From the NCBI GenBank assembly GCA_947500275.1, contig CANMSW010000001.1, positions 1 through 34,091 of the forward strand: a DNA stretch of 34,091 nt, read 5' to 3'. The notes beneath the pieces are model-generated. The model saw only the letters and a list, made by a program, of their open reading frames with translations. It was not told the DNA's origin and made no database searches. Positions 155 through 13,651 of this stretch are shown here, in pieces; position 1 is the stretch's first letter; every line of letters starts with the position of its first letter. Source of the DNA: Bacteriovoracaceae bacterium. GTDB lineage: Bacteria > Bdellovibrionota > UBA1018. Both the position numbers and the translations under genes were made by a program.

Positions 155-1435
155 TTAGCGGTCTAGTTCGCCAGCGATGATGTTCATACTGCCCAAGAGT
201 CCGACCATATCCGCGATCTTCAAGCCGTCAGAAACTGGCGTGAGGGTCTGAAAATGGTAAAACGAGGGCCCACGAATTCTCATGCGGTGGGCGGCCGGAC
301 CGCCCTTGCTCACGATATAGAATCCGAGTTCGCCATTGGGTGCTTCAAAAGTGGTGTAGGCCTCGCCCGGAGGCACCTCGAAGCCGGTCATGAAAAACTT
401 AAAGTGATGGATCAGACCTTCCATCGTATTGTGAACGACGTCCTTTTCAGGAATGCGAACTCGCTTGTCATCTGCCCAGATCGGACCTTTTTTAATTCGA
501 TCACAGCACTGACTGATAATATTTAAGGACTGCCGAATCTCTTCCATTCGAACCAAATAGCGGTCGAACACGTCGCCATTTTGGGCAATCGGTACATCAA
601 ACTCCATGTCCTTATAAAACATCGATGGCTGGTCGCGCCGCAGGTCGTAGTTCAGGCCCGCCGCCCTTACTGCCGGACCCGTGACACTGTAGGCTTGGCA
701 AAGTTTTGCGTCCATAATGCCGACGCCAATCGTACGCTGACACCAAATTTTATTGCCCGTGAGCAAGGCGTCCATCTCGTCGATGACGACCCGGGTGCGC
801 TTTACCCAGTCTTTAACTTGTTTTTCCCAACCCTCAGGCGCGTCGGCCATCAGGCCACCAATACGAGTGTAAGAGGTGGTCAGTCGTGCACCGCAAAGCT
901 TTTCAATCAGCGTGTAGGCTTCTTCCCGCTGGTGGAATCCATAAAGGAAAAAGGAAAACGCACCCAGGTCGACCGCGTTGATACCGACACAAATGAGATG
1001 GTCGATGACTCGTGCAAGTTCGCAACAAATCATCCGAATCCAGACAGCGCGATCGGGAACCTGAACGCCCATGAGCCGCTCGACCGACATGGCATAGGTC
1101 ACATTGTTCACGAGCGCCGAACAGTAGTTCAACCGATCCGTGTAGACCACGAACTGGTGGTAAGTTCGGTTTTCACCCAGCTTTTCTTTGGCACGATGGG
1201 TGTAACCAAATTCACAGTACGACTTTTCAATCGTTTCACCGTTAATCTTAGCCACCATTCGAAGCGCACCGTGCATCGCTGGGTGCGTTGGACCAATATT
1301 CACGATCACTCGCGAATCACCCCAGAGATCGTCCGGGTCATGGTCCACTGAGTAGTGTCCACCTTGCGGTAAACCCAGGTCGGGGAGTCGTTCGTTTTTC
1401 ATGATGTTCTCGGAGGTCTTCTGGTCGATCGACAT
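155..1435 (-). CDS. nuoD: NADH-quinone oxidoreductase subunit D (49 kDa), canonical copy
   Basis: 426 aa. Carries GPTHPAMHGALRM (canonical HPxxHG loop), TDRLNYCS (quinone-site Tyr present) and the C-terminal NIIAGELDR. Order is nuoC-nuoD-nuoE. Confidence 0.95.
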   Translation of the reverse strand: MSIDQKTSENIMKNERLPDLGLPQGGHYSVDHDPDDLWGDSRVIVNIGPTHPAMHGALRMVAKINGETIEKSYCEFGYTHRAKEKLGENRTYHQFVVYTDRLNYCSALVNNVTYAMSVERLMGVQVPDRAVWIRMICCELARVIDHLICVGINAVDLGAFSFFLYGFHQREEAYTLIEKLCGARLTTSYTRIGGLMADAPEGWEKQVKDWVKRTRVVIDEMDALLTGNKIWCQRTIGVGIMDAKLCQAYSVTGPAVRAAGLNYDLRRDQPSMFYKDMEFDVPIAQNGDVFDRYLVRMEEIRQSLNIISQCCDRIKKGPIWADDKRVRIPEKDVVHNTMEGLIHHFKFFMTGFEVPPGEAYTTFEAPNGELGFYIVSKGGPAAHRMRIRGPSFYHFQTLTPVSDGLKIADMVGLLGSMNIIAGELDR

Positions 1436-1487
1436 TTACGCTAGCTCCGTGGTTCCAAAATGCGCTCTTAAAGGTTGAAAATCCTGT

Positions 1488-2057
1488 TTAATAATTGAGG
1501 AGCGATGGATCGATCGCCTCAGGGGTCGGGAAAATTTGATATCCGCGAAGAGGATAGTCCTTACGCAATGGATGTCCTTCCCAGCGAACGTCCATAAGAA
1601 TGCGACGAAGATCCGGGTGGCCCTCAAAGCGAACCCCGAACATGTCCCAAACTTCACGCTCAGCCCAGTTCGCGGCGGGCCAAAGACTGATCGCCGTGGG
1701 AACTGCATTTTCCTCATCCGTCCTTACCTTCACCCGAACACGTGACATCGATTTGCGTGAGAGCAGGTTGTAAACAACGTGAAATCGTGGTGCCGACTCC
1801 TCGTCGGTTGCGGTCAAATCAGCGAGAAAGCCGTATTCAAACCCTGCATCGTTTTTCATGAAACCAAGCACATCGATAATTCGGGCTGCTTGGACGAAAA
1901 TGATCGGGACATCAGTGTTCGCTTCTTTTGGAAACAAAACCTCTTCAATGGCGTCGCCAAACTTTTCCTTTAAGGTTTGAACTTGCTTCTTCCAGAGCTC
2001 ACCAAACTTTTCGAGTTGATCGCCATAGATGGTAGGAACGGGTGTGTTAATATCCAT
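1488..2057 (-). CDS. nuoC: NADH-quinone oxidoreductase subunit C (30 kDa), canonical copy
   Basis: 189 aa. Contains AEREVWDMFGVRFEGHPDLRRIL...HPLRKDYP, the typical 30 kDa subunit signature. Lies between nuoB and nuoD. Confidence 0.93.
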   Translation of the reverse strand: MDINTPVPTIYGDQLEKFGELWKKQVQTLKEKFGDAIEEVLFPKEANTDVPIIFVQAARIIDVLGFMKNDAGFEYGFLADLTATDEESAPRFHVVYNLLSRKSMSRVRVKVRTDEENAVPTAISLWPAANWAEREVWDMFGVRFEGHPDLRRILMDVRWEGHPLRKDYPLRGYQIFPTPEAIDPSLLNY

Positions 2058-2123
2058 TTTTTCCGACTCTCTTGTTCTGGTCTTTCCGGGTAATTGATCT
2101 CTTCGCGAAAAAAAGACTCTGTA

Positions 2124-2639
2124 CTAGGTAATCGACTTCAGAGTTCCTGCGCGGGATTGCCGCTCGCGGCGTTGGGCTACAGTTTCACCTTTTTGAATCT
2201 GCTCCTGAAGACGGATCAAAGAGTGCAAAACGCCCTCAGGCGCTGGAGGACAGCCGGGAACGTAGACATCAACAGGGATGACCGTATCAATCCCTTGAGT
2301 GACGCTATAAACATTGAAGATTCCGCCAGACGAGGCGCACGCACCAAATGACATGACCCACTTTGGTTCACTCATCTGATCATAAACCGTCTTCAAGACC
2401 GGAGCCATCTTGGCGTTAATGATCCCCGCGACAATCAGTAAGTCCGCTTGCCGGGGCGAAAAGCGAATGGCCTCGGCACCAAATCGAGCCATGTCGTAGT
2501 CAGAGCAAAGTGTGGCCATCATCTCGATTCCACAGCAGCTCGTCCCAAACGGAAGAGGAAACAAAGAGTGCTTACGTGCCCAATTTACGACCGCGTCTAC
2601 ACGAGTGGTGAAATATGCTGCTGACCCGTCTTTGCTCAT
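2124..2639 (-). CDS. nuoB: NADH-quinone oxidoreductase subunit B (20 kDa, N2 cluster), canonical copy
   Basis: 171 aa. Contains GTSCCGIEMM, SPRQADLLIVAG, GACASSGG and PGCPPAPE, so all four N2 Cys positions are present. Confidence 0.95.
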   Translation of the reverse strand: MSKDGSAAYFTTRVDAVVNWARKHSLFPLPFGTSCCGIEMMATLCSDYDMARFGAEAIRFSPRQADLLIVAGIINAKMAPVLKTVYDQMSEPKWVMSFGACASSGGIFNVYSVTQGIDTVIPVDVYVPGCPPAPEGVLHSLIRLQEQIQKGETVAQRRERQSRAGTLKSIT

Positions 2640-2685
2640 GTTCTTGCTCCTGCGTGTTGAATCTGAAGTTGGGACTCAGTGACGA

Positions 2686-3045
2686 TCACTCCCACTCCAG
2701 CGCGCCCTTCCGAAGAATGTACCAATAGCCAACAAGAAGGATCGCCGTGAAGACGACCATCTCGACCAAAATGAAAGAGTTTATAGTGAGGAACTTTCTG
2801 TAAACAACGGCCCAGGGGTAAAAGAAGAGAACCTCAACATCGAAAAGAAGAAAAAGGATCGCGACCAAATAGAACCGCACCGAGAATCTCTGGCGCGCGT
2901 CTCCGAGCGGAGGAACCCCGCACTCGAACGGCTGATCCTTCAGCGCATGCTTAATTCGCGGCCCAAGAAGGTGTGTAATCACAAGAACCGCGGCAGCGAC
3001 TAACACGCCCACTGCCATTAGCATCAAGACTGGAATATAGCTCAT
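2686..3045 (-). CDS. nuoA: NADH-quinone oxidoreductase subunit A, canonical copy
   Basis: 119 aa, three TM segments. Contains PFECG and RFSVRFYLVAILFLLFDVEVLFFYPWA; the conserved Asp/Glu of the FDVE motif are present. AGGATGG RBS upstream. Confidence 0.93.
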   Translation of the reverse strand: MSYIPVLMLMAVGVLVAAAVLVITHLLGPRIKHALKDQPFECGVPPLGDARQRFSVRFYLVAILFLLFDVEVLFFYPWAVVYRKFLTINSFILVEMVVFTAILLVGYWYILRKGALEWE

Positions 3046-3237
3046 AGACTAACCATCCTCTGATGTTCGCGCCTGAAGACAACCTCAAGCTCCCTAAAAA
3101 CACACCGAGAGTGACTGAATGAAGACCCACACTCCTCAGTCGCAACGCGAACTTAAGAGCGCAAGCCTCAATCACAACCTCTCGATTAGAGCTTTCGCTC
3201 TCAAGAGTACACGAGGAGCTTAAAACATTTGTAGGCT

Positions 3238-3267
3238 TTTATAGCGATGCGGCGTGTCCTAGGCCAA
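3238..3267 (-). promoter_or_regulatory. Candidate sigma70-type promoter for the canonical nuoA-B-C-D-E... operon
   Basis: The reverse strand reads TTGGCC-18 nt-TATAAA, just downstream of the preceding terminator and about 190 nt upstream of the nuoA start. This is a by-eye consensus match only. Confidence 0.25.
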
Positions 3268-3270
3268 GTG

Positions 3271-3300
3271 AAAAACGGGGGCCTCCTCTGTCGGGCCCCC
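3271..3300 (-). terminator. Rho-independent terminator ending the 11-gene nuo-like operon
   Basis: Reverse-strand RNA is GGGGGCC-(10 nt loop)-GGCCCCC followed by GUUUUU. It starts 10 nt after the nuoN-like stop at 3310. Confidence 0.7.
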
Positions 3301-3309
3301 ATAAAAGTG

Positions 3310-4833
3310 TCAGGGAAACATCAGTCCCTGGGTTGCGCGCTCAAGGAGGCGGAAAAGTGCGTCCGAAAAAATGGCCGCCGTGATCAGAGGAAAAAGAAAG
3401 AGCCCCATGAAGAGCCGCTGCCCGCGGACCCGTGCGGGGGTGGGTAGCCAAACTCGCTCATCGACCAACGGTGATCCCGGCGCAACAGTCTGGGTTGCAA
3501 ACCCACCCATCAAACTGAAGATCAATCTTCCAGCGGCTAGGGTGTTCAGCGCTATCGCAGCGACCCCGGCCGCGGCGAGCCCGTACCACTCGTGATCCAC
3601 TGCCGATCCCAAAAGGGCAAACTTGCCGACAAAGCCTGGCATGGGGGGAAGTCCGATGAGTGCGCAGAGACAAAGCACGAGGGCGATGCTTTCCGGTACG
3701 TTCGCTTGAAACGCTCCCCGCAGCCGATTGAGCGCATCCGAGCCCAGACGATCTACAAAAATCTGGAGAACGAATAGTGCCCCCATGAGGCCAACAAGGC
3801 TTACAAAAAATGAGTAGAGAACCGCAGAGAGGCCCTCCTGATCGAGCACAAGAATTCCTAAAAGACTAAACCCCGCTTCGGTGAGCGCAAGAGTCGCGAT
3901 CATTCGGCGTCCTGAGGTCTGCCCCAGTGCGAGCACGGGGCCAATCAAGAGACTAAACGCCACCAGCACGGCCATCGGTCCTGTCCAGTCGAACTGTCCA
4001 AGGATGGTCCAATGCCGAGCTGGGCCAGCCGAATCCATTTCAACGGTACCGAAAACCTGGGTTAATACGCGTATCCATGCGACCAATCCGCCTGCACGCG
4101 TCGCTACGGAAATGAAAGATGAAGAGGGAGTAGGAGGCCCCTCAAGCGCATCGGCAAACCAAGTATGAAATGGAAATGCGGCTACATAGAAGGACAAGCC
4201 CATCAGCAAAAAAAGCCAGACCATCGCACCCGCCTGAATACTCAAGGGCGCAGCCACCAGGGCTGCGTGAATCTGGTCCAGGCGCGTCGAATGGGTTGCG
4301 CTAAAAAGAAGAGCGATTCCAAATAGCAAGAAAGTTCCAGACACTACCGATAGGACCAGGTACTTCACGGCTGCCTCTGTTGACCGCACTGATCCCGTTC
4401 CGAAGGCCGCCAAGAAGCCACAAGAAACACTCAGAAGCTGCAAGCAGGCCCAAATCAGAAAGAGGTCTGAAGCCGATGAAAGGACTGTCAGCGCCAGTGC
4501 CCCGCCCAAGACAAGAATCTGGAATTCAGGGCGCCGATGTTGAGCAATTTCGTCAGAAAGCTGGGCGGAACCGACCGCGTAGAGTGCCAGCACTATAGCC
4601 AAGACCTTAAAAAAGACTGCGACACCATCTACTTTTACGCTGCCCTGAAACCCCGCAGATATGCCGAAGCGGGCGATAAGAAACACCTGAAGAAGTGCTC
4701 CCACTAGGCCAAAAACAATCGTCAACCAACCGACCCTGATTCGCTCGCCCCGATAGCCGAGCTCCCCCAAGACGGCGCCTACCATCGTGATCAAAATGAA
4801 TACTTCCGGTAATAAAATCAGAAAATCATTCAT
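3310..4833 (-). CDS. nuoN: NuoN-like antiporter-type subunit of the divergent 11-gene complex I-like operon
   Basis: 507 aa polytopic protein. Contains STEAAVKYLVLSVVSGTFLLFG, AFPFHTWFADALEGPPTPSS and GLPPMPGFVGKFALL (ND2/NuoN pattern). It is the last gene of the operon. Confidence 0.85.
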   Translation of the reverse strand: MNDFLILLPEVFILITMVGAVLGELGYRGERIRVGWLTIVFGLVGALLQVFLIARFGISAGFQGSVKVDGVAVFFKVLAIVLALYAVGSAQLSDEIAQHRRPEFQILVLGGALALTVLSSASDLFLIWACLQLLSVSCGFLAAFGTGSVRSTEAAVKYLVLSVVSGTFLLFGIALLFSATHSTRLDQIHAALVAAPLSIQAGAMVWLFLLMGLSFYVAAFPFHTWFADALEGPPTPSSSFISVATRAGGLVAWIRVLTQVFGTVEMDSAGPARHWTILGQFDWTGPMAVLVAFSLLIGPVLALGQTSGRRMIATLALTEAGFSLLGILVLDQEGLSAVLYSFFVSLVGLMGALFVLQIFVDRLGSDALNRLRGAFQANVPESIALVLCLCALIGLPPMPGFVGKFALLGSAVDHEWYGLAAAGVAAIALNTLAAGRLIFSLMGGFATQTVAPGSPLVDERVWLPTPARVRGQRLFMGLFLFPLITAAIFSDALFRLLERATQGLMFP

Positions 4834-4842
4834 AGCTCAGCC

Positions 4843-6429
4843 TCAATTAAACGAAGAAAGCATCGCCAAAACGGTCGGTCTGACTAAATCGAGTAAGGGC
4901 TTCGGATAAACACCAAAGCCGACGAGTGCGATGACAACCGGAATCAAATAAAGCTTCTCCCGGGGACGAAGGTCTTCAAATGCGGCCGTGAGGGCTGTCG
5001 TTTGTCCCAAGAATACACGCCGGTACATGTTGAGGATCGTATAGGTCCCTAGAAGAAGCGCACCCCCAGCCGCAATCACGACGAATGGATGGAAAGAATA
5101 GCCACCAATCACGAGAAGCGCATGAGAGACAAAACCACCCACGCCCGGAACCCCTAAGATTGAGGCCGAAGCGATCGCTGCCACCAATGCTGCCCCCGGT
5201 GCTCCTAGGGCAACTCCACCTAATGTAGAATCTTTCGACTCCGTATCGGCCGTAAAGAGCTCACTTCGGGTTCTCTCTGATATTACTCCAACCAAAAGAC
5301 CAAGGGCGGCCAGCGCCAAGCCCACCACGAGTTGCTGATAAACGGCGCCCACGAAGCCTGCCTGGCTAAGCGAGCCCACGCCCATCAACAAAAGGCCCAG
5401 TTCCCCGAGCGCAACAAACGCGAGCAGCGATCGAAGGCCTCTTTGTGCAACTGCGCACACACCACCGACCAACAAATTAACAACCCCGACCACAACGACT
5501 GCTGAGGCCACCTTGCCCAAGGTTTCTGGAAATAACTGAGTCGAGAGCCGCATAAAAATAGAAGGAGCAACGGCGAGCACAGTAACCACCGATGCGACCA
5601 AAACAGTGGCCGGCGCCTCTACGGCAACCTTAGTGAACCATCCATGAAAGGGCCATATCGGAGCGCGTAATATAAGTCCGCTGGTCATCAGAAAAAACGC
5701 TAAATCAGAAGTGCTCACATTGTAGCCAAGAATCTCAAACCCGGCACCACGGATCCCCCCCTGAGCGAGCAAACGAAGCGAGAACGTGTTCGGTTCAGCT
5801 GAATAATAGACAACGAGAAGCGCGCCGAAAAAAAGCGCGTTTCCAAGGGCAGCCGTAACGATACTCCTAAAGGCGGCTGACTCCCGATCTGCGCCACCCC
5901 AAATCCCGATAAGAAAATAGAAGGGCAGAGCGGACATCGACCAAAAAAAGAAAAGAAGAAACAGATCTTGGGCGCAAACGGCACCAAGCAAGGATGCCTG
6001 TAAAATGAGGAGGAGTCCGTGAATTCCGCGCCTTCCAGCGCCTCGGGTCCATTCGGCAGCGATCAAGAGCGGAAAAACCAGAGAAATCAGAATCACGACA
6101 GGGGCGCTCAGACCATCTAGCCCAAGTTCATAACTAATCGCATAGGAACCAATCCAGGGTAAAGACTCGACAATCTGGGGTTCGGCAACCTTAGGATGCA
6201 TCGACGCCACAAGGACTACACCGCAGATTGCGCTCGCTAAACTTGCACTCAGGGCGGCCCAACTCGCTGACCCCTCTCCTAATCGACTTGGCTTAGCAGA
6301 AACATCAGCGCTGGGGCTGTTCGTCTCTCCATCTCGACTCGAGGCGGGAACTTGGCCTCCAATCACGGTCTGAAGAATAGCGCCCAAAACGGGCGTTGCG
6401 AGCATAAATGTGATGAGATGCTGAACCAA
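4843..6429 (-). CDS. nuoM: NuoM-like antiporter-type subunit (divergent)
   Basis: 528 aa. Contains LGLDGLSAPVVIL, FFFWSMSALPFYFLIGIWGG and WPFHGWFTKVAVEAPAT (ND4/NuoM pattern). TTG start preceded by GGAGGTG. Confidence 0.85.
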   Translation of the reverse strand: MVQHLITFMLATPVLGAILQTVIGGQVPASSRDGETNSPSADVSAKPSRLGEGSASWAALSASLASAICGVVLVASMHPKVAEPQIVESLPWIGSYAISYELGLDGLSAPVVILISLVFPLLIAAEWTRGAGRRGIHGLLLILQASLLGAVCAQDLFLLFFFWSMSALPFYFLIGIWGGADRESAAFRSIVTAALGNALFFGALLVVYYSAEPNTFSLRLLAQGGIRGAGFEILGYNVSTSDLAFFLMTSGLILRAPIWPFHGWFTKVAVEAPATVLVASVVTVLAVAPSIFMRLSTQLFPETLGKVASAVVVVGVVNLLVGGVCAVAQRGLRSLLAFVALGELGLLLMGVGSLSQAGFVGAVYQQLVVGLALAALGLLVGVISERTRSELFTADTESKDSTLGGVALGAPGAALVAAIASASILGVPGVGGFVSHALLVIGGYSFHPFVVIAAGGALLLGTYTILNMYRRVFLGQTTALTAAFEDLRPREKLYLIPVVIALVGFGVYPKPLLDLVRPTVLAMLSSFN

Positions 6430-6481: not shown

Positions 6482-8425
6482 CTATTGTTGACTTACCAAG
6501 AAATGTATCAGCAGAGATATTCCTGCGCCAATTGCGAACGTCACGTACCATTGAAGATTCCCAGTGTGAGCAGACTGTACTGCCCCCGTAGCAGCGGTCG
6601 ATAGCGCGTAAGCAACTCGTGCGATCAGATTACTCAACGCACGATCTACCTTCCCAAAAGCGCGCCCAGCAGACTGCACACCGCGGTTTAAAACATAAGG
6701 CGCCCAAGTGTTTGAAAACTTTTCATCAATCCAGGTTTGCAGGTGCCGTCCTACAAACCTAAATGCGTCGGCGAGACCCGCGAATGCTCTCTCCGTTCCG
6801 TACCCGCCCGAGACAAAGGCCGAGAGCCGTGGCGCGTAGGCCACAAACTTGCGAAACGGGCCAATACCTGATGCCCCATTCCACCAAGCGATCAAGATGG
6901 AGGTCAACAAAAGCGCGAAGTGTACACCTATGACGAGAGTGTTGACGCTGTCGCCGCGACCGTTAGGGGAAATCCGCTCGAGCACCGAGCCCAGCACTCG
7001 GTCAGAGAAAATACTTGCGTCAAGACCGGTGAGTGTTCCGTTCCAAAAAACCCCAAACCCAACGAAAATTACTAAAACAGGAATTGATAACCAGCGCCCC
7101 TGAATAAAACTTTTTTCGCTCTCATGCTTAAAGGCGGTTCCCAGTTGCCAGGCTACCCGAGCGCCACATGCGGAAACGAGAAAGCTGCACAAAAGAACGA
7201 CCGCCGCGCGAGCGGGCGACTGTTGCATAGATTCAGCATAAAGGGCCACAAACCCTCCTGCGGAAGCAAAAAGAAGTCCGCCGGCCGAAGAAAACGCCCC
7301 AAGCAGAGCCACCGAAAGTAACCAATTCGAACCATTTTTAGTGCTTTTCGATGACTTTTCGATCGCGCAGTCCACCTTTTTTGCAGCGCCGTCGGCCAAG
7401 AGGGCCCACCCTAAACTTACGGTCACCGCAGTCAAACAGATTGGAACTGCTACATGGGCGCCGACAAAACCCAAAGATGCAAAGGATACCATTCCAATGG
7501 CTGAGAGCCAGAGAGACGCCGCGTTCATCCAGTTGTTTTGAAAGAAACTTGAAGTGGCCGCTAGAATCGCTGCCAAAGAGCCAATCCAACCCAAGGCTGT
7601 CTCTAGTCCTGCAGCGCGGATGAGCGACTCGTTCCTGATGAGCGCTCCCAGTGAAACCCAAAGCGGTGCAGCCTGTGCTATATAAATCCGCGTTAGCGGT
7701 CCCGAGGGGGCATGCCGAGTGAGTCGACCCAAGAGCGGGAACGGTTGAGCAAAAACGAAGATTCCCGCGAGCAACAGAATAGGACCTAAACCTTTGGCTG
7801 CGACGGCCGGAGTCAGGCTTTGAATGTGCGTGATTGCGCCTGCGCCCAGTACTGCAAGCAGAATCGCGCTAATTCTCTCAATACCAAATGACATCATGAA
7901 TTCAGCGCCTTCAGGGTCCCGCCAGTGACCACCAAGTGCTATGACTCCACCGAGTGCAGCAAAGACCATCCCTAAAAAGGATGCCCACGGCGTGATTCCC
8001 GACCATGCTAGGACCGAACCCATGAGTGAAAAGCCTATTGCTGATGCAAACCTTCCTACCCCAGTCCACCTCTGCCTTGCCCAAACGTAGACCTGTAGTA
8101 GGACTGCAAGCGTAGCCGCTGCAATTCCCGACGACACCCCAAGGACGTCGACACTCATTCCAAACCGAATCGCAAGACCCTGTCTTCGAGGTAAGATCCA
8201 TCCCGATATCCAGTCAAAAGAGGATTGATCCTCGAGACTGAGATCATAGCCCAACCAACCCAAAAGGACGAGCAGCCCTACGCTGGCAATTAGGACCGGC
8301 ACACTCGCTAGTGTCGGGATTCTTCTTCCGAAGAAAAACGCGAGCAGGCTTGCGAAACCCAAAAAGAGTATTCCGAGAGCGAGCGGTTCGGGAGAATGCA
8401 GGAGTGGACTAAGATCACTTTTCAT
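6482..8425 (-). CDS. nuoL: NuoL-like antiporter-type subunit (highly divergent) with C-terminal lateral-helix region
   Basis: 647 aa. Contains RWTGVGRFASAIGF (compare WEGVGLCSYLLIGF) and AQPFPLLGRL (compare AQxPLHxWL). A long amphipathic C-terminal stretch ends in SAHTGNLQWYVTFAIGAG, which resembles the NuoL HL helix and last TM. It lies between nuoK-like and nuoM-like. Confidence 0.75.
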   Translation of the reverse strand: MKSDLSPLLHSPEPLALGILFLGFASLLAFFFGRRIPTLASVPVLIASVGLLVLLGWLGYDLSLEDQSSFDWISGWILPRRQGLAIRFGMSVDVLGVSSGIAAATLAVLLQVYVWARQRWTGVGRFASAIGFSLMGSVLAWSGITPWASFLGMVFAALGGVIALGGHWRDPEGAEFMMSFGIERISAILLAVLGAGAITHIQSLTPAVAAKGLGPILLLAGIFVFAQPFPLLGRLTRHAPSGPLTRIYIAQAAPLWVSLGALIRNESLIRAAGLETALGWIGSLAAILAATSSFFQNNWMNAASLWLSAIGMVSFASLGFVGAHVAVPICLTAVTVSLGWALLADGAAKKVDCAIEKSSKSTKNGSNWLLSVALLGAFSSAGGLLFASAGGFVALYAESMQQSPARAAVVLLCSFLVSACGARVAWQLGTAFKHESEKSFIQGRWLSIPVLVIFVGFGVFWNGTLTGLDASIFSDRVLGSVLERISPNGRGDSVNTLVIGVHFALLLTSILIAWWNGASGIGPFRKFVAYAPRLSAFVSGGYGTERAFAGLADAFRFVGRHLQTWIDEKFSNTWAPYVLNRGVQSAGRAFGKVDRALSNLIARVAYALSTAATGAVQSAHTGNLQWYVTFAIGAGISLLIHFLVSQQ

Positions 8426-8432
8426 AGGCGCT

Positions 8433-8732
8433 CTAGTTTTTCAGGTTTTCAATTTCACTTAAATCTACATTGCCGCGCAGATAAAAGAGCCGCGTGGAAA
8501 GCCCAAGTCCGATTCCAAATTGCGCTAAACCGGCTAATAAAATCACTACTGCGTAGGCCTCTCCTGATGAGACAGGGAAGCTGTCAGAGCCAATACCGGA
8601 AACCAAAAAGGCTAATGCGGCAGACAGACTGAGAAGCTGTATTCCTACCAGAAGCCTCAGTACGCCTGCGCGAAGCAGAACGCAAAGGAGTCCCGAGACA
8701 GCGAGCATCGCTACAGGCATATAATAAATCAT
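8433..8732 (-). CDS. nuoK: NuoK-like subunit (divergent)
   Basis: 99 aa, three TM segments. It aligns along its whole length with E. coli NuoK (LLVGIQLLSLSAALAFLVSG / VVILLAGLAQFGIGLGL). ATGA overlap with the upstream nuoJ-like gene. Confidence 0.85.
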   Translation of the reverse strand: MIYYMPVAMLAVSGLLCVLLRAGVLRLLVGIQLLSLSAALAFLVSGIGSDSFPVSSGEAYAVVILLAGLAQFGIGLGLSTRLFYLRGNVDLSEIENLKN

Positions 8733-9301
8733 GATTCCGACACCCCACCCTGAGCGGCGGCCCGTTTAAGAACCCTGGGTCTCGATATTGCTCCAACGCC
8801 AACTATAGTGAGAAAGGTGCCTACCCCCACCATGAGAAGCGCAAGCATTGGTCCGTTTGCTAGCGCCTCACCTAAGCGTGCTACGGCAGACGCACCCGAC
8901 TTACCGAGGGTGCCCTCCGCTCCATGTTTCTGTAAGCCCAGGCCGTTCACACCTAGCAAGAAAGTCCAACCCAGGGCGACGCTCACCAAGAGGCCACCCA
9001 CCGGGAGAAACGCTGCCAACTTCCCCCTCGGATGGGCAGCCCGTGCCCGTCGCGAGGACGCGCCCTCCGATGGGTCCAGGATTTCCCCAAAGGTCGAACC
9101 ATAGGCCAAAAAAGCGACAGTACTTGAAGATCCCAACACCCAAACGAGGAGTGTTATAAACTCAGCTCCGAAGTGGAGAGCAATACATCCGAAGAGGAGG
9201 TTCACACACCACAGCGCAAGCACGGCACTCGTAAAACTTCTCCCAAGCGCTGCGAACATGCTTGCGACTCCCAGTAAAGCCGAGAGCACCCAAATCATCA
9301 T
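8729..9301 (-). CDS. nuoJ: NuoJ-like subunit (divergent)
   Basis: 190 aa membrane protein. Contains HFGAEFITLLVWVLG (compare GAxFLAxxQxxVYxGA) and a C-terminal GPMLALLMVGVG. Position between nuoI-like and nuoK-like, with ATGA overlaps on both sides. Confidence 0.7.
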   Translation of the reverse strand: MMIWVLSALLGVASMFAALGRSFTSAVLALWCVNLLFGCIALHFGAEFITLLVWVLGSSSTVAFLAYGSTFGEILDPSEGASSRRARAAHPRGKLAAFLPVGGLLVSVALGWTFLLGVNGLGLQKHGAEGTLGKSGASAVARLGEALANGPMLALLMVGVGTFLTIVGVGAISRPRVLKRAAAQGGVSES

Positions 9302-9948
9302 AATTCTCCCTTTATTTTTTGGCTCTCGGTAGAAGACCCCTGTTCACTTCTATCTGAAAGTTCAGAAAGAGAGAAAACCGGAGCACCCTGAGTATCGCGC
9401 TGTACCTTCTCCCACCGACTCTTCTGCTCGGCTGTGATTCTGCCGCGACCAAAACTGGCCGACATATCGGCGAGATCATAGACAGCCCGCTCATAGGCTT
9501 TAGTGTGGACGAGTGAAGTCGGAATACAAGACTCCACACAGAGTCCGCAGAAGGTGCAACTTGAGAAATCAATATCGAAAACTGATACCCAAGCCTTCTG
9601 GGAGTCCGGGACTTGAACTGTTTCCACCGTGATACATTTCACGGGGCAAACTTTCTCGCAGTCTCTGCACCCCGTGCACCGCTCAATATCATTAAAGAGT
9701 AAACCACGAACCCTTGCCGGAAGATCGTTCTCGGTCCGTGATGAAATGGGATCTGGATATTGCTCAGTCACTTCTTTTCGGAGGTCCGCAGCATTCCCCC
9801 CGCGCAAGTAAGGGAGCGACGCGCGAAGTGCGTTCGAAAGGCTCGCAAGAGCGTCGCGCAAAGATTTGAATGAAGCGATCAAATCTTGTGTCAACCCACT
9901 GGAAAAAGACGGAGCAACAAGGTCTCTCTCTTCACCGCTCATACTCAT
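9298..9948 (-). CDS. nuoI: NuoI-like 2x[4Fe-4S] ferredoxin subunit (divergent, with N- and C-terminal extensions)
   Basis: Contains CTGCRDCEKVCP and CTFCGLCVESCIP. I chose the start at MSMSGEE (ATG at 9948) because it forms an ATGA overlap with the nuoH-like stop and has GGAGGA upstream. The ORF track extends to 10023. Confidence 0.85.
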   Translation of the reverse strand: MSMSGEERDLVAPSFSSGLTQDLIASFKSLRDALASLSNALRASLPYLRGGNAADLRKEVTEQYPDPISSRTENDLPARVRGLLFNDIERCTGCRDCEKVCPVKCITVETVQVPDSQKAWVSVFDIDFSSCTFCGLCVESCIPTSLVHTKAYERAVYDLADMSASFGRGRITAEQKSRWEKVQRDTQGAPVFSLSELSDRSEQGSSTESQKIKGEL

Positions 9949-10982
9949 GGAGAAATTCCTCCTGCCTTCAAAAGGGCGGAACCCATCAGACAAACGAGAG
10001 AGATCGGGCCGAGTGCGCGCCAAGAGAAATCAGCAACTTGATCAAACCGAATTCTCGGCATCACACGCCCAACTACGCCCAAAACCATCATGAGTGACAG
10101 CGTTTTAAGACCTACGAGGAAAACTTGAATCGCCTGATATGCAAAGGTATTTGCGGCGCCCTCACCTAGAACAGCCACTAAAACAGAGCTTAAGAACCCA
10201 GGAAGCGCCCAGCCACCCATGAATAGCCCTACCGTAAGAACACACCAAACAAGCACACCGTAAAACTTGATGATCACGGACAAAGAGGAGCGCCTCCCCG
10301 AGAACAGTGTGCCAAGTCCACCTCGAAGATCAGGGCCAGACGCCGTGCTATCAAAAGGGGGTAACGAGAGGATTACCATTCCTGATGCTAGAAAAATAAG
10401 AAATGAAACAAACAGAAATGGCTCCCTGAACATTAGCCAAGTACCCATGCTTGAGTCATGCGGGCTTAAAAGGTTCGACCACTGAAACCCTCCGGCGGAG
10501 AGTCCCACCGATATTAGCGAAATCATCGCTGGCAGAAAGCCTGATATCGCTTGAAATGCCGAGCGAAGCCCGGCAAGCCAACCTGTAAACTCGCGACTGT
10601 TCACACCCAGGAGGAGGCTACAAACAGAAACCATCAAGATGCACCAGAGTGGCAGGAGAATCGATAATCCTGTAATCGTCATGAGGAGATGCGGTGCAAT
10701 CGGTACTGTTACCATTGCCGCGTGGAGTGCGGCTAACTGCAGGGCCGGCCACAGGGCTAGCTGCGGGGTTTTGAGTTCCGGCGAAACCTTCTGAAGTAAT
10801 TTCAGCTGATCGGCAATCCCCTGAAACAAGCCGAGGGGTCCCACGCGATTCGGGCCAACTCGGGCCTGAAGATCGGCTCCAATTTTTCTCTCGAAGTATG
10901 AGTGCAGAAACCCAACCGGGAGCACAAAACCCAGTTGAAGAATCAAGAGCGACGAGAAGACTTTTGAAAGTGTTTCAATCAT
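9945..10982 (-). CDS. nuoH: NuoH-like subunit (divergent)
   Basis: Contains FERKIGADLQARVGPNRVGPLGLFQGIADQLKLL, the hallmark ND1/NuoH N-terminal motif. I chose the start at MIETLSK (ATG at 10982, GAGAGG RBS, 13 nt after the nuoD-like stop). The ORF track extends to 11057, inside nuoD2. Confidence 0.88.
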   Translation of the reverse strand: MIETLSKVFSSLLILQLGFVLPVGFLHSYFERKIGADLQARVGPNRVGPLGLFQGIADQLKLLQKVSPELKTPQLALWPALQLAALHAAMVTVPIAPHLLMTITGLSILLPLWCILMVSVCSLLLGVNSREFTGWLAGLRSAFQAISGFLPAMISLISVGLSAGGFQWSNLLSPHDSSMGTWLMFREPFLFVSFLIFLASGMVILSLPPFDSTASGPDLRGGLGTLFSGRRSSLSVIIKFYGVLVWCVLTVGLFMGGWALPGFLSSVLVAVLGEGAANTFAYQAIQVFLVGLKTLSLMMVLGVVGRVMPRIRFDQVADFSWRALGPISLVCLMGSALLKAGGISP

Positions 10983-10995
10983 TCTAGCCTCTCGA

Positions 10996-12138
10996 TCATC
11001 GGTCGATTTCCGCCAAGTTGAGGTCAAGGCTCGCCAGGACCAATGGAATATCCTCAAGTTGGCAGCCAGGTATGATCTCGGGTAACAGATCCAGCGGCGC
11101 CCGAGACGGCACTCTAAAGTGGACTCGTGATGGCCGCTCGCCTCCGGCGGATAAGACGTGACAGGTCAGTAAGCCCCGGGAGCTTTCCACTCGGGAGAAC
11201 CCTTCTCCGATCGGAATCTTAAATTTCTCATCTGCCTTCAAGCCGAGGGCGCTTCCGGTCGGCATGATTTCTGAGCACTGGCGTATAATATCCATCGATT
11301 GAACAATCTCTCGAATGCGAATCATGTATCGCCCATGACAATCGCCTTCGCGCTCTTCTCCCATCACCACATCAAAATCTAACTTCGAATAGGCAGCATG
11401 GGGCGCCCATCGTCGCGTATCCATGGCAATCCCGCTTGCTCGGGCATTTGGCCCCGAAAGACCAACCCTCTTGGCCGCTTCAGGAGTGATGTTTGCGGTT
11501 GCTCGTGCTCGACCTAAGAATGCCTGATTGTAGCTAAAAAGGTCGTTGTACTCTTTAAACCGGTGGCGCATGACGGCGCAAACTTCAAGCACCCGCTCTA
11601 AAAAGCCGTCGGTCACATCGTGGACTACGCCACCCATCCGGAGGAAATTAAGAGAAAACCGTGCACCTGTGAGTAGCTCGAAAAGATCGACAAACTTTTC
11701 CCGATCTCGCTGGACGTAGTGGAAAAGAGTTTCTGCTCCTACAGTGCGCGCTAAGCGCGCTACAAAGCCCAGATGCGATACCACCCGTGAAAGCTCAGCT
11801 GCTAGCGTTCTTACAAACAGGGCTCTTTCGGAAACCTCGATGCCCGCGAGATCTTCGACTGCCTGACAATAGGCGAGCTCCCCAAAAATGGCCCCCTCTG
11901 GGTCAAGGCGGTCAGATATCAGCACTCCGGCTGTCCAGCCCTCAGATTCAAATACTTTTTCAAGCCCTCGATGGGCAAATCCTGTTTCGGTTCTTGCGGA
12001 AACGACCAGCTCTCCATCGAGTACAAGCTTAAGCTGCATCAAGCCTGGCAAGCCTGGGTGATACGGGCCCATCACCCAGTTGGTCGAATCCGTCTGGAGA
12101 ACTTCCGTTTGAAAAGGCGCAGGGGCCATCGTCATCAT
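10996..12138 (-). CDS. nuoD: NuoD-like 49 kDa subunit, divergent paralogue
   Basis: 380 aa. Contains MGPYHPGLPGLMQLKLVLDGE, TGFAHRGLEKVFE, LTGARFSLNFLRMGGV and the C-terminal LDLNLAEIDR. Confidence 0.88.
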   Translation of the reverse strand: MMTMAPAPFQTEVLQTDSTNWVMGPYHPGLPGLMQLKLVLDGELVVSARTETGFAHRGLEKVFESEGWTAGVLISDRLDPEGAIFGELAYCQAVEDLAGIEVSERALFVRTLAAELSRVVSHLGFVARLARTVGAETLFHYVQRDREKFVDLFELLTGARFSLNFLRMGGVVHDVTDGFLERVLEVCAVMRHRFKEYNDLFSYNQAFLGRARATANITPEAAKRVGLSGPNARASGIAMDTRRWAPHAAYSKLDFDVVMGEEREGDCHGRYMIRIREIVQSMDIIRQCSEIMPTGSALGLKADEKFKIPIGEGFSRVESSRGLLTCHVLSAGGERPSRVHFRVPSRAPLDLLPEIIPGCQLEDIPLVLASLDLNLAEIDR

Positions 12139-12148
12139 TTTCTTGTCC

Positions 12149-12676
12149 TCACTGCTGCTCGGCCTTTTCGGTCGAAGAACCCAGTCGCCTCATGGGGAAG
12201 CCAAAATGATCGTGATCATGATCATGATCGAGTGAAAAGTCAGATCCAAAGTCTGGCCGATTTAAAAACTGGATCCCGAATAAAACTTCTATTTCCAGCT
12301 CGGAGCCGATCGCCGCAGGCCAGAACTGAGCGAGGGAAGGGAGCTCCGTGAGCTCGCCTGTGCCAGTGACCGGCAATACGACTCTCAACCAAAGACTTCG
12401 GCCAAACTGGCTCGTATCAGTCCACTTTGCGGTGACAAGAAGCCCACCTTGAAACTCCATCGCAAAAAGGTCTTCAAAAAATGAAAGACCTAGCTCATTC
12501 GATGACCGACGAAGCTGACTCAGCGCTTCTGAAAATGACTCTCTGCTCACAAAAATCTGAATCGCCCGGTTAGACCCGGTCGCTTCAAATTGGCTAACAT
12601 CTTGGATCGCTAAACCCTTAAAGACTTCGCGTACCCGCGCCGACCAAACTTCATGGGAAGATTTAGGATTCGCCAC
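12149..12676 (-). CDS. nuoC: NuoC-like 30 kDa subunit, divergent paralogue with (HD)4 tract
   Basis: 175 aa, lying between nuoB-like and nuoD-like. There is weak similarity to the NuoC core (compare GSELEIEVLFGIQFLNRPD with AEREVWDMFGVRFEGHPD). The call rests mainly on position. Confidence 0.65.
   Translation of the reverse strand: MANPKSSHEVWSARVREVFKGLAIQDVSQFEATGSNRAIQIFVSRESFSEALSQLRRSSNELGLSFFEDLFAMEFQGGLLVTAKWTDTSQFGRSLWLRVVLPVTGTGELTELPSLAQFWPAAIGSELEIEVLFGIQFLNRPDFGSDFSLDHDHDHDHFGFPMRRLGSSTEKAEQQ
12206..12229 (-). repeat. Hexanucleotide (GATCAT/GATCAC)x4 tract encoding DHDHDHDH in NuoC2; contains four GATC sites
   Basis: The plus strand reads atgatcgtgatcatgatcatgatc. The reverse-strand codons are GAT CAT GAT CAT GAT CAC GAT CAT. 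Confidence 0.9.
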
Positions 12677-13145
12677 GAATCTTCTCCTGAAGGGTGATCA
12701 AGCCGTTCATAATAGCCTCGGGTCTGGGTGGGCAACCAGGCACATGGACATCCACCGGAATGATCCTTCCAACCCCTGAAAGACCTGTGTAGCTCCGATC
12801 CTCTGAAAATAAGCCCCCACAGCTGGCACAACTTCCAAGCGCCATTACGTACTTCGGCGCCAACATTTTTTCGTAAATCTGAAGCAGATGGGGCGCTGAC
12901 TTACGCGTCACTACGCCGCTCACAAGGAGAAGGTCCGCCTGAGAGGGTTCAAGCTGAGGAACACACCCAAACCGCTCGAGATCGTAGCGGCTCCCCAACG
13001 TCTCCATGACCTCATCGGCACAACAACCGGACTGAACGGCGTAATACCAAAGGGACCCAGAGCGAGCCCATTTCATGGCGCTCTCGAGTTTCGACAGAAA
13101 AAAACCACTCTGATTCTCTGATGCTGAAGGTCTGCCTTTATTCAT
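12663..13145 (-). CDS. nuoB: NuoB-like 20 kDa subunit, divergent paralogue (N2 cysteines retained)
   Basis: 160 aa. Contains SGCCADEVM, GSCASCGG and PGCPPRPEAI. ATGA overlap with the nuoA-like gene. Confidence 0.9.
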   Translation of the reverse strand: MNKGRPSASENQSGFFLSKLESAMKWARSGSLWYYAVQSGCCADEVMETLGSRYDLERFGCVPQLEPSQADLLLVSGVVTRKSAPHLLQIYEKMLAPKYVMALGSCASCGGLFSEDRSYTGLSGVGRIIPVDVHVPGCPPRPEAIMNGLITLQEKIRGES

Positions 13146-13651
13146 AAAGACTCCTCCCGGTGATTTTCCTTCTCGGCGCGATAGGTCCGCAACAGGAATA
13201 GGTCGCCCTTTCCTGATCCATGTAGCAATCCAAGTAAGGCGAGCAATGCGATGGACAGGAGCAGAATCAGCGTTCGCGAATTCGTGGCAGCGCCCTCTCC
13301 GACGATCCCTACGCGATAGGCGAGTGGAATTAAAACCATGACCATTCCTAGGAGCAGGTGGGCAAACAGAGTTGTGACGAAAAACCGAGAGTTAAACCTC
13401 CTGCCGAGCAAGGGACTCGTCGTTTCGTCATCTCTCAATACTGGCTGATGCCCTTGGCTTGGCTCGACATGACTGGAGCGCGCCCGATTGCTGCCGCGCC
13501 GGGGCAAGAGCATGGTCCGTGAAATGATATAGAGAACAGCAGGTACAACCAAAGACACTGCTGCAGCAACAAAGAAGGGGAGGTAAGCCTGCCAGCTTGA
13601 CGATATCCCTTCAGTCTGAAATGCCGCTAATATTCCCTGCGCTTCGCTCAT
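13142..13651 (-). CDS. nuoA: NuoA-like membrane subunit, divergent and extended paralogue
   Basis: 169 aa with about three TM segments. It is the first gene of the operon and is translationally coupled to nuoB2. RRFNSRFFVTTLFAHLL aligns with canonical RFSVRFYLVAILFLLF. It carries a long Arg/Ser/Pro-rich loop. Confidence 0.55.
   Translation of the reverse strand: MSEAQGILAAFQTEGISSSWQAYLPFFVAAAVSLVVPAVLYIISRTMLLPRRGSNRARSSHVEPSQGHQPVLRDDETTSPLLGRRFNSRFFVTTLFAHLLLGMVMVLIPLAYRVGIVGEGAATNSRTLILLLSIALLALLGLLHGSGKGDLFLLRTYRAEKENHREESL

Follow-up and report, generated by a model that had tools for sequence, protein, structure and literature searches.

A Second Complex I-Like Gene Cluster of Bdellovibrionota Lacks the Canonical Quinone Site and Proton Path and Retains the Iron-Sulfur Ligands

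The coupling mechanism of respiratory complex I is still debated, and several of its relatives deviate from it. The Mbx/MBS and Fpo complexes, whose substrates are polysulfide and methanophenazine, are energy-converting enzymes with working ion modules, and they are precedents for a change of substrate in this family. Ehr complexes have been described as related to the group 4 hydrogenases; their antiporter subunits are of the Mrp type, and ion translocation by them is presumed. In Nautiliales, Desulfurobacteriales, and Sulfolobus, NuoD is part of a Nuo-type operon and lacks His38, Tyr87, and Asp139, and its quinone reactivity was doubted (Degli Esposti 2016, PMC4758237). FpoD keeps Tyr87 and lacks His38 and Asp139 (PMC4758237). 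Here, an 11-gene complex I-like cluster, designated as Nuo2, and in particular its 49-kDa-type subunit NuoD2, are analyzed from a Bacteriovoracaceae bacterium (Bdellovibrionota; UBA1018). The DNA analyzed, called the window below, is positions 1 to 34,091 of the forward strand of contig CANMSW010000001.1 in the assembly GCA_947500275.1. Nuo2 has lost the canonical quinone site, the E-channel, and the antiporter axis.

The genes A2, B2, C2, D2, H2, I2, J2, K2, L2, M2, and N2 are arranged in this order on the minus strand, from position 13651 down to 3310, and no NuoEFG genes are included. All 11 subunits were identified with Pfam, phmmer, and hhalign, and their order is the same in every locus. 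For each subunit, 13-19 Nuo2 orthologues (6 for NuoC) were aligned with MAFFT to 22-45 canonical sequences including those of E. coli, whose NuoCD sequence was taken from the locus L084. Columns at least 85-90% conserved in the canonical enzymes were designated as conserved columns, and their retention was then scored in Nuo2 (Table 1).

NuoD2 has the fold of the 49-kDa subunit. Its best matches among solved structures, revealed by phmmer against PDB, were NdhH and Nqo4, with the e-value 1.6e-65 for Thermus thermophilus Nqo4 (2fug_4). An AlphaFold2 model built on 49 relatives reached a predicted local distance difference test (pLDDT) score of 87.4 and a predicted template modeling (pTM) score of 0.88, and Foldseek gave template modeling scores (TM-scores) of 0.87-0.89 against complex I 49-kDa subunits. 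In the phmmer alignment, GPQHPSTHG of Nqo4 corresponds to GPYHPGLPG of NuoD2, and RMDY to RLDP. His38 is replaced by Pro31 (codon 12046-12048) and Tyr87 by Pro80 (codon 11899-11901). The identical register was obtained with MAFFT for 26 canonical NuoD proteins besides E. coli NuoCD, and this alignment revealed a third loss at the ligand site, the substitution of Asp139, the partner of His38, by Thr132 (codon 11743-11745). Both quinone-headgroup ligands and Asp139 are lost, and the canonical quinone site is absent.

These two proline substitutions had been proposed in a first-pass annotation, which was made from the letters of the window and which named a faulty register as one way in which it could be wrong. 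The phmmer and MAFFT alignments bear out both substitutions. A misalignment by eye was rejected, as four independent alignments including a structural superposition converge on one register, and the alignments do not place a His or a Tyr at positions 38 and 87 of Nqo4. The neighboring canonical NuoD (155-1435) carries both ligands in GPTHPAMHG and DRLNYCS, as had been stated. The claim that hydrogenase-type cysteines are missing also agrees with a motif scan of the protein, in which six Cys residues were present and no RxCGxC, DPCxxC, or CxxC was detected. No Cys/His cluster or other new ligand set was found in NuoD2. The conserved columns lost from NuoD2 include H38, Y87, and D139. NuoD2 remains below the NCBIfam equivalog cut-offs for NuoD, with 339 bits versus 360 for NF004739 and 312 versus 459 for TIGR01962, while the canonical NuoD1 exceeds both.

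The conservation of this pattern was analyzed at two depths. The close set consists of the 120 database proteins closest to NuoD2 (50-67% identity). The deep set, drawn from 1.84 billion cluster representatives, includes about 45 further clusters defined at 50% identity, which are 33-54% identical to NuoD2; column entropy was computed over 33 of the representatives in this identity range. Pro31 is present in 119 and Pro80 in 117 of the 120 closest relatives. Pro has only a majority in the deep set, with 20/33 at position 31 and 19/33 at position 80; the deep family has P, V, L, M, I, S, or Q at the former position and P, S, G, Y, A, or T at the latter. The former ligand columns show ordinary variability there, between the 37th and 68th entropy percentiles. 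The Pro/Pro pattern is thus conserved among orthologues of the close clade and prevails only by majority in the deep family. His38 and Asp139 are missing in all of the approximately 45 deep clusters, while Tyr87 is still present in a few deep members, such as P0145. The Pro/Pro pair is fixed in one clade, as is the D-P-E motif, and the loss of His38 and Asp139 is family-wide.

The deep-branching P0145 (L090 10001-11131) shows the pattern H-V-Y-T, in which Tyr87 is kept, and its pump residues are already gone. Such a combination may mean that loss of the proton path preceded loss of the last quinone ligand. NuoD-like proteins of 366 aa, namely P0173 (L091 128-1228), P0204, P0228, and P0251, constitute a group of their own. 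His38 is absent from the P0173 group, position 87 is Tyr or Phe, a faint match to NiFeSe_Hases is seen, and the proteins come from very short contigs only.

Three other residues, Tyr26, His27, and Glu81, are each conserved in 117/121 sequences of the close clade. For Tyr26 and His27, this conservation does not extend to the deep family, where their columns lie at the 67th-68th entropy percentile, and no new invariant pocket residue was found in deep NuoD2 proteins. The average constraint and the lack of a new invariant residue suggest that the site was lost rather than adapted to new chemistry. To judge from these alignments, the former headgroup pocket looks like a relic and not like a newly specialized catalytic site.

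The iron-sulfur (Fe-S) ligands behave differently. In NuoB2, C41, C42, C106, and C138 correspond to the N2 [4Fe-4S] ligands C63, C64, C129, and C158 of E. coli, and they are retained in 14/14 close and 4/4 deep orthologues; all of them are among the conserved columns kept by NuoB2. In NuoI2, the two motifs are CTGCRDCEKVC and CTFCGLCVESC, and 8/8 Cys residues are retained in every family member examined. The first-pass annotation had likewise counted four N2 cysteines in NuoB2 and two full CxxCxxCxxxC motifs in NuoI2. In total, the 12 Cys ligands for N2, N6a, and N6b are invariant in close and deep members, down to approximately 35% identity. The cavity-lining motif SLWP..FG of NuoB is altered to SLWYYAVQ in NuoB2.

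The listed open reading frame (ORF) of NuoI2, 9298-10023, starts too early, and the ATG at 9948, preceded by GGAGGA, is the likelier start. This start overlaps the stop codon of nuoH2 in the sequence ATGA. NuoI2 also has a C-terminal tail rich in Ser, Glu, and Gln, and is 216 aa long versus 150-192 aa in the orthologues called.

Substitutions at functional positions are found throughout the membrane subunits. NuoA2 was aligned to canonical NuoA by hhalign with 98.6% probability, shows no Pfam or NCBIfam match, and has hydrophobic residues at both D79 and E81. NuoH2 has lost Y156, E157, R209, E216, E218, E228, E241, and R286 of the E-channel and the loop between transmembrane helices (TM) 5 and 6, while R37, D63, K66, K70, R291, R293, and D295, which contact the peripheral arm, are kept. 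The same losses appear in an independent pairwise alignment to NdhA by phmmer. In the deep lineages L085 and L089, gaps are aligned at E216-E228 of NuoH, in the TM5-6 loop. NuoJ2 has no Pfam match in the window, and its orthologues match Oxidored_q3. Gln occupies both the E36 and E72 sites of NuoK2 in 14/15 sequences, and hhalign gives the same pairing.

Among the three antiporter-like subunits, NuoL2 is the most diverged and is the fastest-evolving subunit of the cluster. It is aligned with E. coli NuoL by hhalign with 98.8% probability and the e-value 6.8e-17 (residues 73-642 versus 64-609). No Pfam or NCBIfam match was obtained for NuoL2, and a word-indexed search of 5.8 billion proteins returned only one fragment of the same protein. 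E144, D178, K229, H254, K399, and D400 are all replaced by non-ionizable residues. In the NuoM2 of the window, E144 is Ser, K234 Arg, K265 Ala, H322 Glu, and E407 His; among the orthologues, E144 is replaced by G, S, or A, K234 by R in 19/19, K265 by P or A, H322 by E, and E407 by H. In NuoN2 orthologues, E133 is replaced by Q or L, K217 by Q or Y with Gln in most, and K247 by R, while K395 is retained. The NuoM2 and NuoN2 alignments were checked by pairwise phmmer alignments to Paracoccus Nqo13 and NdhB, respectively. Only K395 of NuoN and a few scattered positions survive of the hydrophilic axis of NuoL, NuoM, and NuoN. NuoH2 and NuoN2 fall below the NCBIfam equivalog or subfamily cut-offs.

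These losses are reproduced by independent hhalign and phmmer alignments (NdhA, Paracoccus Nqo13, and NdhB). The canonical paralogues encoded in these genomes served as an internal control, and they retain every residue that is lost from Nuo2. Four deep lineages show the identical losses of pump residues, and their 12 Fe-S cysteines are still there. An N-terminal low-complexity stretch is seen in NuoM2 at residues ~27-55 (…ASSRDGETNSPSADVSAKPSRLGEGS…); it has no counterpart in solved NuoM structures, and alignments of NuoM2 to these structures begin downstream of it.

At many of these sites, one substitution is enough to cripple a known enzyme, as seen for E144 and K234 of NuoM, E144 and K229 of NuoL, K217 of NuoN, E36 and E72 of NuoK, and E157 of NuoH. 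Substitution of Tyr87 or His38 in the 49-kDa subunit is likewise crippling, and such mutagenesis was done in E. coli, Yarrowia, and Paracoccus. It is inferred for this reason that Nuo2 could not function as a canonical quinone-reducing proton pump.

The first-pass annotation had described the pocket of NuoD2 as still wired to Fe-S clusters and deprived of the known quinone chemistry, which implied an energy-converting complex I-like enzyme whose pocket is re-tooled for a new, non-quinone acceptor. Its descriptive part stands, in that the Fe-S ligands are kept and the quinone ligands are gone. The implied enzyme does not fit the stripped pump residues and the lack of a new invariant pocket residue, and such an enzyme is now considered very unlikely. 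The intact Fe-S wire with the lost quinone ligands and the fixation of Pro/Pro and D-P-E in the close clade are in its favor, as are the Mbx/MBS and Fpo precedents (see also PMC4758237). However, nearly all residues of the E-channel and the antiporter axis are gone, which rules out the known route of energy conversion, the residues at the pocket positions differ among deep members, and NuoD2 offers no new ligand set.

An uncoupled quinone reductase, which would bind quinone at a site re-wired through Tyr26, His27, and Glu81 or at a shallower site and act as a large, non-pumping bypass similar to NDH-2, is also judged quite unlikely. The near-fixation of these three residues in the close clade and the retained equivalent of Asp401 in NuoD2 are compatible with such a site, and Tyr87 mutants of Yarrowia and E. 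coli are still active with short-chain quinones (PMC4758237). Tyr26 and His27 nevertheless vary in the deep family, the cavity-lining motif of NuoB2 is altered as well, and the alignment gaps of L085 and L089 cover E216-E228 of NuoH.

All 11 Nuo2 genes are under purifying selection. The ratio of nonsynonymous to synonymous substitution rates (dN/dS), calculated from two closely related genome pairs, is 0.02-0.30 for all of them and is near the values for canonical A1-D1; it is 0.03-0.05 for D2, 0.09-0.10 for L2, and 0.02-0.04 for M2. B2 has a dN of 0.05, 0.24, and 0.23 in three genome pairs, versus 0.05, 0.19, and 0.17 for B1. Over larger distances, D2, A2, and L2 have accumulated 2-3 times more nonsynonymous changes than their canonical paralogues. 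In all loci examined, 11/11 ORFs are intact.

The alternative of decay had been raised together with the first reading of the pocket, and in its full form it takes the cluster as a pseudogenized copy on its way out. The wholesale loss of catalytic residues, the failure of Pfam and NCBIfam to recognize L2, A2, and J2, and the 2-3 times faster evolution of D2, A2, and L2 would fit such a copy. Gene decay was rejected on the grounds of low dN/dS and intact ORFs. The gene order is also common to hundreds of database relatives, many of the substituted residues show conservation of their own (for example, K to R, E to Q, and Pro/Pro), and the translational coupling of nuoH2 and nuoI2 is preserved. 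A decaying duplicate is thus extremely improbable.

The origin of the cluster was also considered. A recent tandem duplication of the neighboring operon was not supported, as the Nuo2 subunits are no closer to the local canonical subunits than to those of E. coli, and D2 is not a sister of D1 in a neighbor-joining tree, in which branches are long. In this simple distance tree, the NuoD2 family forms one long-branched clade inside the NuoD radiation, apart from the clade of NiFe group 4 proteins. No compositional signal of recent horizontal transfer was detected, with a GC content of 0.52-0.54 over the cluster and its flanks.

The overall architecture is kept: the 11 homologues are present, NuoH retains the residues that join it to the peripheral arm, and NuoL is full-length and includes the lateral-helix region. 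Nuo2 would be a non-pumping complex I scaffold that has no canonical quinone site and keeps the Fe-S wire. The preferred reading, with a probability of roughly 45%, is that Nuo2 serves as a membrane-anchored, non-electrogenic Fe-S electron relay. Nuo2 is predicted to still assemble as an L-shaped complex. NuoI2 would receive electrons from the co-encoded NuoEFG module or a donor of the ferredoxin type; the electrons would then pass through N6a and N6b to N2 and would exit to a loosely bound lipophilic acceptor with no energy coupling.

Several points weigh against an electron relay. No donor gene is present within the Nuo2 cluster. Fe-S ligands can persist for folding alone, as in E. coli NuoG for its off-pathway cluster N7, and by this analogy the retained cysteines are no proof of electron flow. 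Among the membrane subunits, M2 is conserved best and has alternative charged residues at Arg255, Glu343, and His436, and a non-standard ion path is possible. In the close clade, Tyr26, His27, and Glu81 could in principle constitute a re-wired quinone site.

The main rival to the relay, a structural or regulatory pseudo-enzyme, is somewhat unlikely. In this case, Nuo2 would be a scaffold, an assembly platform, a supercomplex partner of canonical complex I, or a redox sensor; it would have no turnover of its own, and its Fe-S clusters would be kept merely for the NuoB- and NuoI-type folds. The strict linkage of Nuo2 to the canonical nuo operon is consistent with such a role, and so are the dismantling of three coupling loops and the whole hydrophilic axis, the average constraint at the former ligand sites with no new catalytic residue in the deep family, and the fact that the most conserved membrane subunit, M2, carries no redox cofactor. 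On the other hand, the N2 carrier B2 evolves as slowly as canonical B1, the 12 cysteines, among them the unusual tandem pair that ligates N2, do not vary down to approximately 35% identity, and 11 genes (~10 kb) held at dN/dS near 0.05 are costly for a pure scaffold.

Beyond the electron relay, a broader proposal is put forward tentatively: Nuo2 may be a "decoupled" complex I that occurs naturally across the phylum, with all 11 subunits turned from a redox-driven proton pump to another task. It may serve as a redox sensor or regulator in the membrane, as an obligate partner of the adjacent canonical enzyme in a hetero-supercomplex, or as a reductase for a non-quinone lipophilic substrate.

Table 1. 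Nuo2 genes and the beginning of the canonical nuo operon in the window. Residues of the membrane subunits are given in E. coli numbering; the last column shows how many canonical conserved columns are kept in the Nuo2 subunit.
Feature	Position	Strand	Description	Conserved columns kept
nuoA2 (ND3-like)	13142-13651	minus	D79 to Leu, E81 to Met	7/26
nuoB2	12663-13145	minus	Pfam Oxidored_q6; above NCBIfam NuoB subfamily cut-off	34/40
nuoC2 (30-kDa-like)	12149-12676	minus	Pfam Complex1_30kDa, e-value 8.7e-8	
nuoD2	10996-12138	minus	380 aa; 49-kDa fold; Pfam Complex1_49kDa, e-value 5.9e-69	49/61
nuoH2 (ND1-like)	9945-10982	minus	Pfam NADHdh; probable ATG start at 10982	38/78
nuoI2	9298-9948	minus	Pfam Fer4 families; two CxxCxxCxxxC motifs, ligands of N6a and N6b	
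nuoJ2 (ND6-like)	8729-9301	minus	TM3 residues Y59 and G61 replaced; hhalign probability 98.6%	8/24
nuoK2 (ND4L-like)	8433-8732	minus	Pfam Oxidored_q2; E36Q and E72Q	5/22
nuoL2	6482-8425	minus	Full-length NuoL homologue including the C-terminal lateral helix region	5/98
nuoM2	4843-6429	minus	Pfam Proton_antipo_M; best-conserved membrane subunit	44/97
nuoN2	3310-4833	minus	Pfam Proton_antipo_M; E133 Gln, K217 Tyr, K247 Arg, K395 kept	33/78
Start of canonical nuo operon	155-3045	minus	nuoA 2686-3045, nuoB 2124-2639, nuoC 1488-2057, nuoD 155-1435	

The canonical nuoA-D genes of the window retain all catalytic residues. In every sufficiently long locus, Nuo2 lies directly upstream of the canonical 14-gene nuo operon in the same orientation. 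Where related loci are long enough, they consist of a divergent mfd, Nuo2, and then nuoA1, B1, C1, D1, E, F, G, H, I, J, K, L, and onward. In the window, a gap of 264 bp (3046-3309) separates nuoN2 from the canonical nuoA, and a weak terminator-like hairpin is seen at 3311-3330. In the loci L012 and L015, the stop-to-stop reading frames of nuoN2 and nuoA are merely 4-16 bp apart. Since the gap differs in this way, co-transcription of the two clusters may differ between lineages. No FNR/CRP-like box was found upstream of nuoA2 in 17 loci.

In NuoC2, residues 150-157 (12206-12229, minus strand) form a DHDHDHDH insertion in a loop, which is absent from 14/14 orthologues checked. This (DH)4 may bind metal or may be no more than an expanded simple repeat. 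The canonical nuoG is short in related genomes, with 474 aa versus 908 aa in E. coli (L013 16927-18351; also L012, L015, and L020), and is seemingly devoid of most of the C-terminal molybdopterin-like domain. The remainder of the window (13848-34064) contains housekeeping genes: mfd, two tandem genes for SurA-like peptidyl-prolyl isomerases, pdxA, a phosphoglucomutase gene, uvrA, atpE, atpB, an AtpI/Z-like gene, a gene for a tetratricopeptide repeat lipoprotein, gyrA, fabH, gyrB, and a recF fragment. Its part from mfd to uvrA is syntenic with related Bdellovibrionota loci.

The relatives carry the organism labels Bdellovibrionota, Bdellovibrionia, Bacteriovoracaceae, and "Oligoflexia" on metagenome-assembled genomes (MAGs), labels that are coarse. 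They include FG-1 and FG-2 of the class UBA1018 (PMC13200544). A wider, multi-phylum family was considered and rejected. The divergent members P0122, P0123, P0131, and P0145 are on long contigs and share the mfd-surA-pdxA-pgm neighborhood with Bdellovibrionota loci; these 4/4 members on contigs that can be judged have Bdellovibrionota synteny, and two others are on contigs too short for this. A profile search for Nuo2 in cultured hosts returned MAG labels only. The "nuoAHJKLMN" cluster reported from cultured predators (PMC13147790) seems to represent the membrane half of a canonical operon that has been split, rather than Nuo2.

Nuo2 is a natural experiment on the coupling of complex I, a chain that links quinone chemistry via the E-channel with the antiporter axis. 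As Nuo2 shows, the architecture can outlast the hydrophilic axis, with fold, subunits, and Fe-S wire under purifying selection. If Nuo2 is truly such a natural mutant, residues needed for assembly can be told apart from those needed for catalysis or coupling. The family implies an undescribed function for a complex I-type assembly. In public annotation, D2 is named "NADH-quinone oxidoreductase subunit D". As a result, two respiratory complexes I, of which only one is workable, may be counted in metabolic reconstructions of these Bdellovibrionota, which are largely uncultured and include the magnetotactic class UBA1018.

No description of the Nuo2 cluster was found in the literature searched, a search that left most subscription-journal papers outside. 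Compared with described systems, Nuo2 has the same subunits in the same gene order as the 11-subunit "NUO11" types, which include the NDH-1 of cyanobacteria and chloroplasts and the enzymes of Chlorobi, Bacteroidota, and Desulfitobacterium. Both have no NuoEFG and possess the ligands of N2, N6a, and N6b. The "NUO11" enzymes keep His38, Tyr87, Asp139, and the full proton path and are quinone-reducing pumps, whereas Nuo2 has none of these features.

Ehr complexes are similar to Nuo2 in that their large subunit has neither NiFe cysteines nor quinone ligands, while the Fe-S small subunit is kept. Unlike Ehr, Nuo2 has the full complex I gene set and order, and its antiporter-like subunits have lost the ionizable residues. 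As to an Ehr affiliation, D2 falls in NuoD by the simple distance tree, which was made without curated Ehr references. The NiFe-type large subunits of group 4 [NiFe] hydrogenases form a clade separate from D2, which has no RxCGxC or DPCxxC. Mbx/MBS and Fpo share with Nuo2 the modular architecture and an altered pocket beside the proximal cluster, and the deep Nuo2 member P0145 has the FpoD pattern at His38, Tyr87, and Asp139.

The NuoD of Nautiliales, Desulfurobacteriales, and Sulfolobus was read as an ancestral form and has vestigial NiFe cysteines at positions 86 and 403 (PMC4758237), whereas Nuo2 has no such cysteines. Loss of pump residues is found in Nuo2 and was not reported for the Nautiliales-type NuoD in that study (PMC4758237). 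Nuo2 also coexists with an adjacent canonical operon, unlike the Nautiliales-type NuoD. Nuo2 is thus distinct in three ways: a full nuo set is combined with the loss of the proton path, vestigial NiFe cysteines are absent, and the cluster stands in tandem with a normal operon. Its closest formal relatives are the "NUO11" enzymes, and its closest conceptual relatives are Ehr and the Nautiliales-type NuoD.

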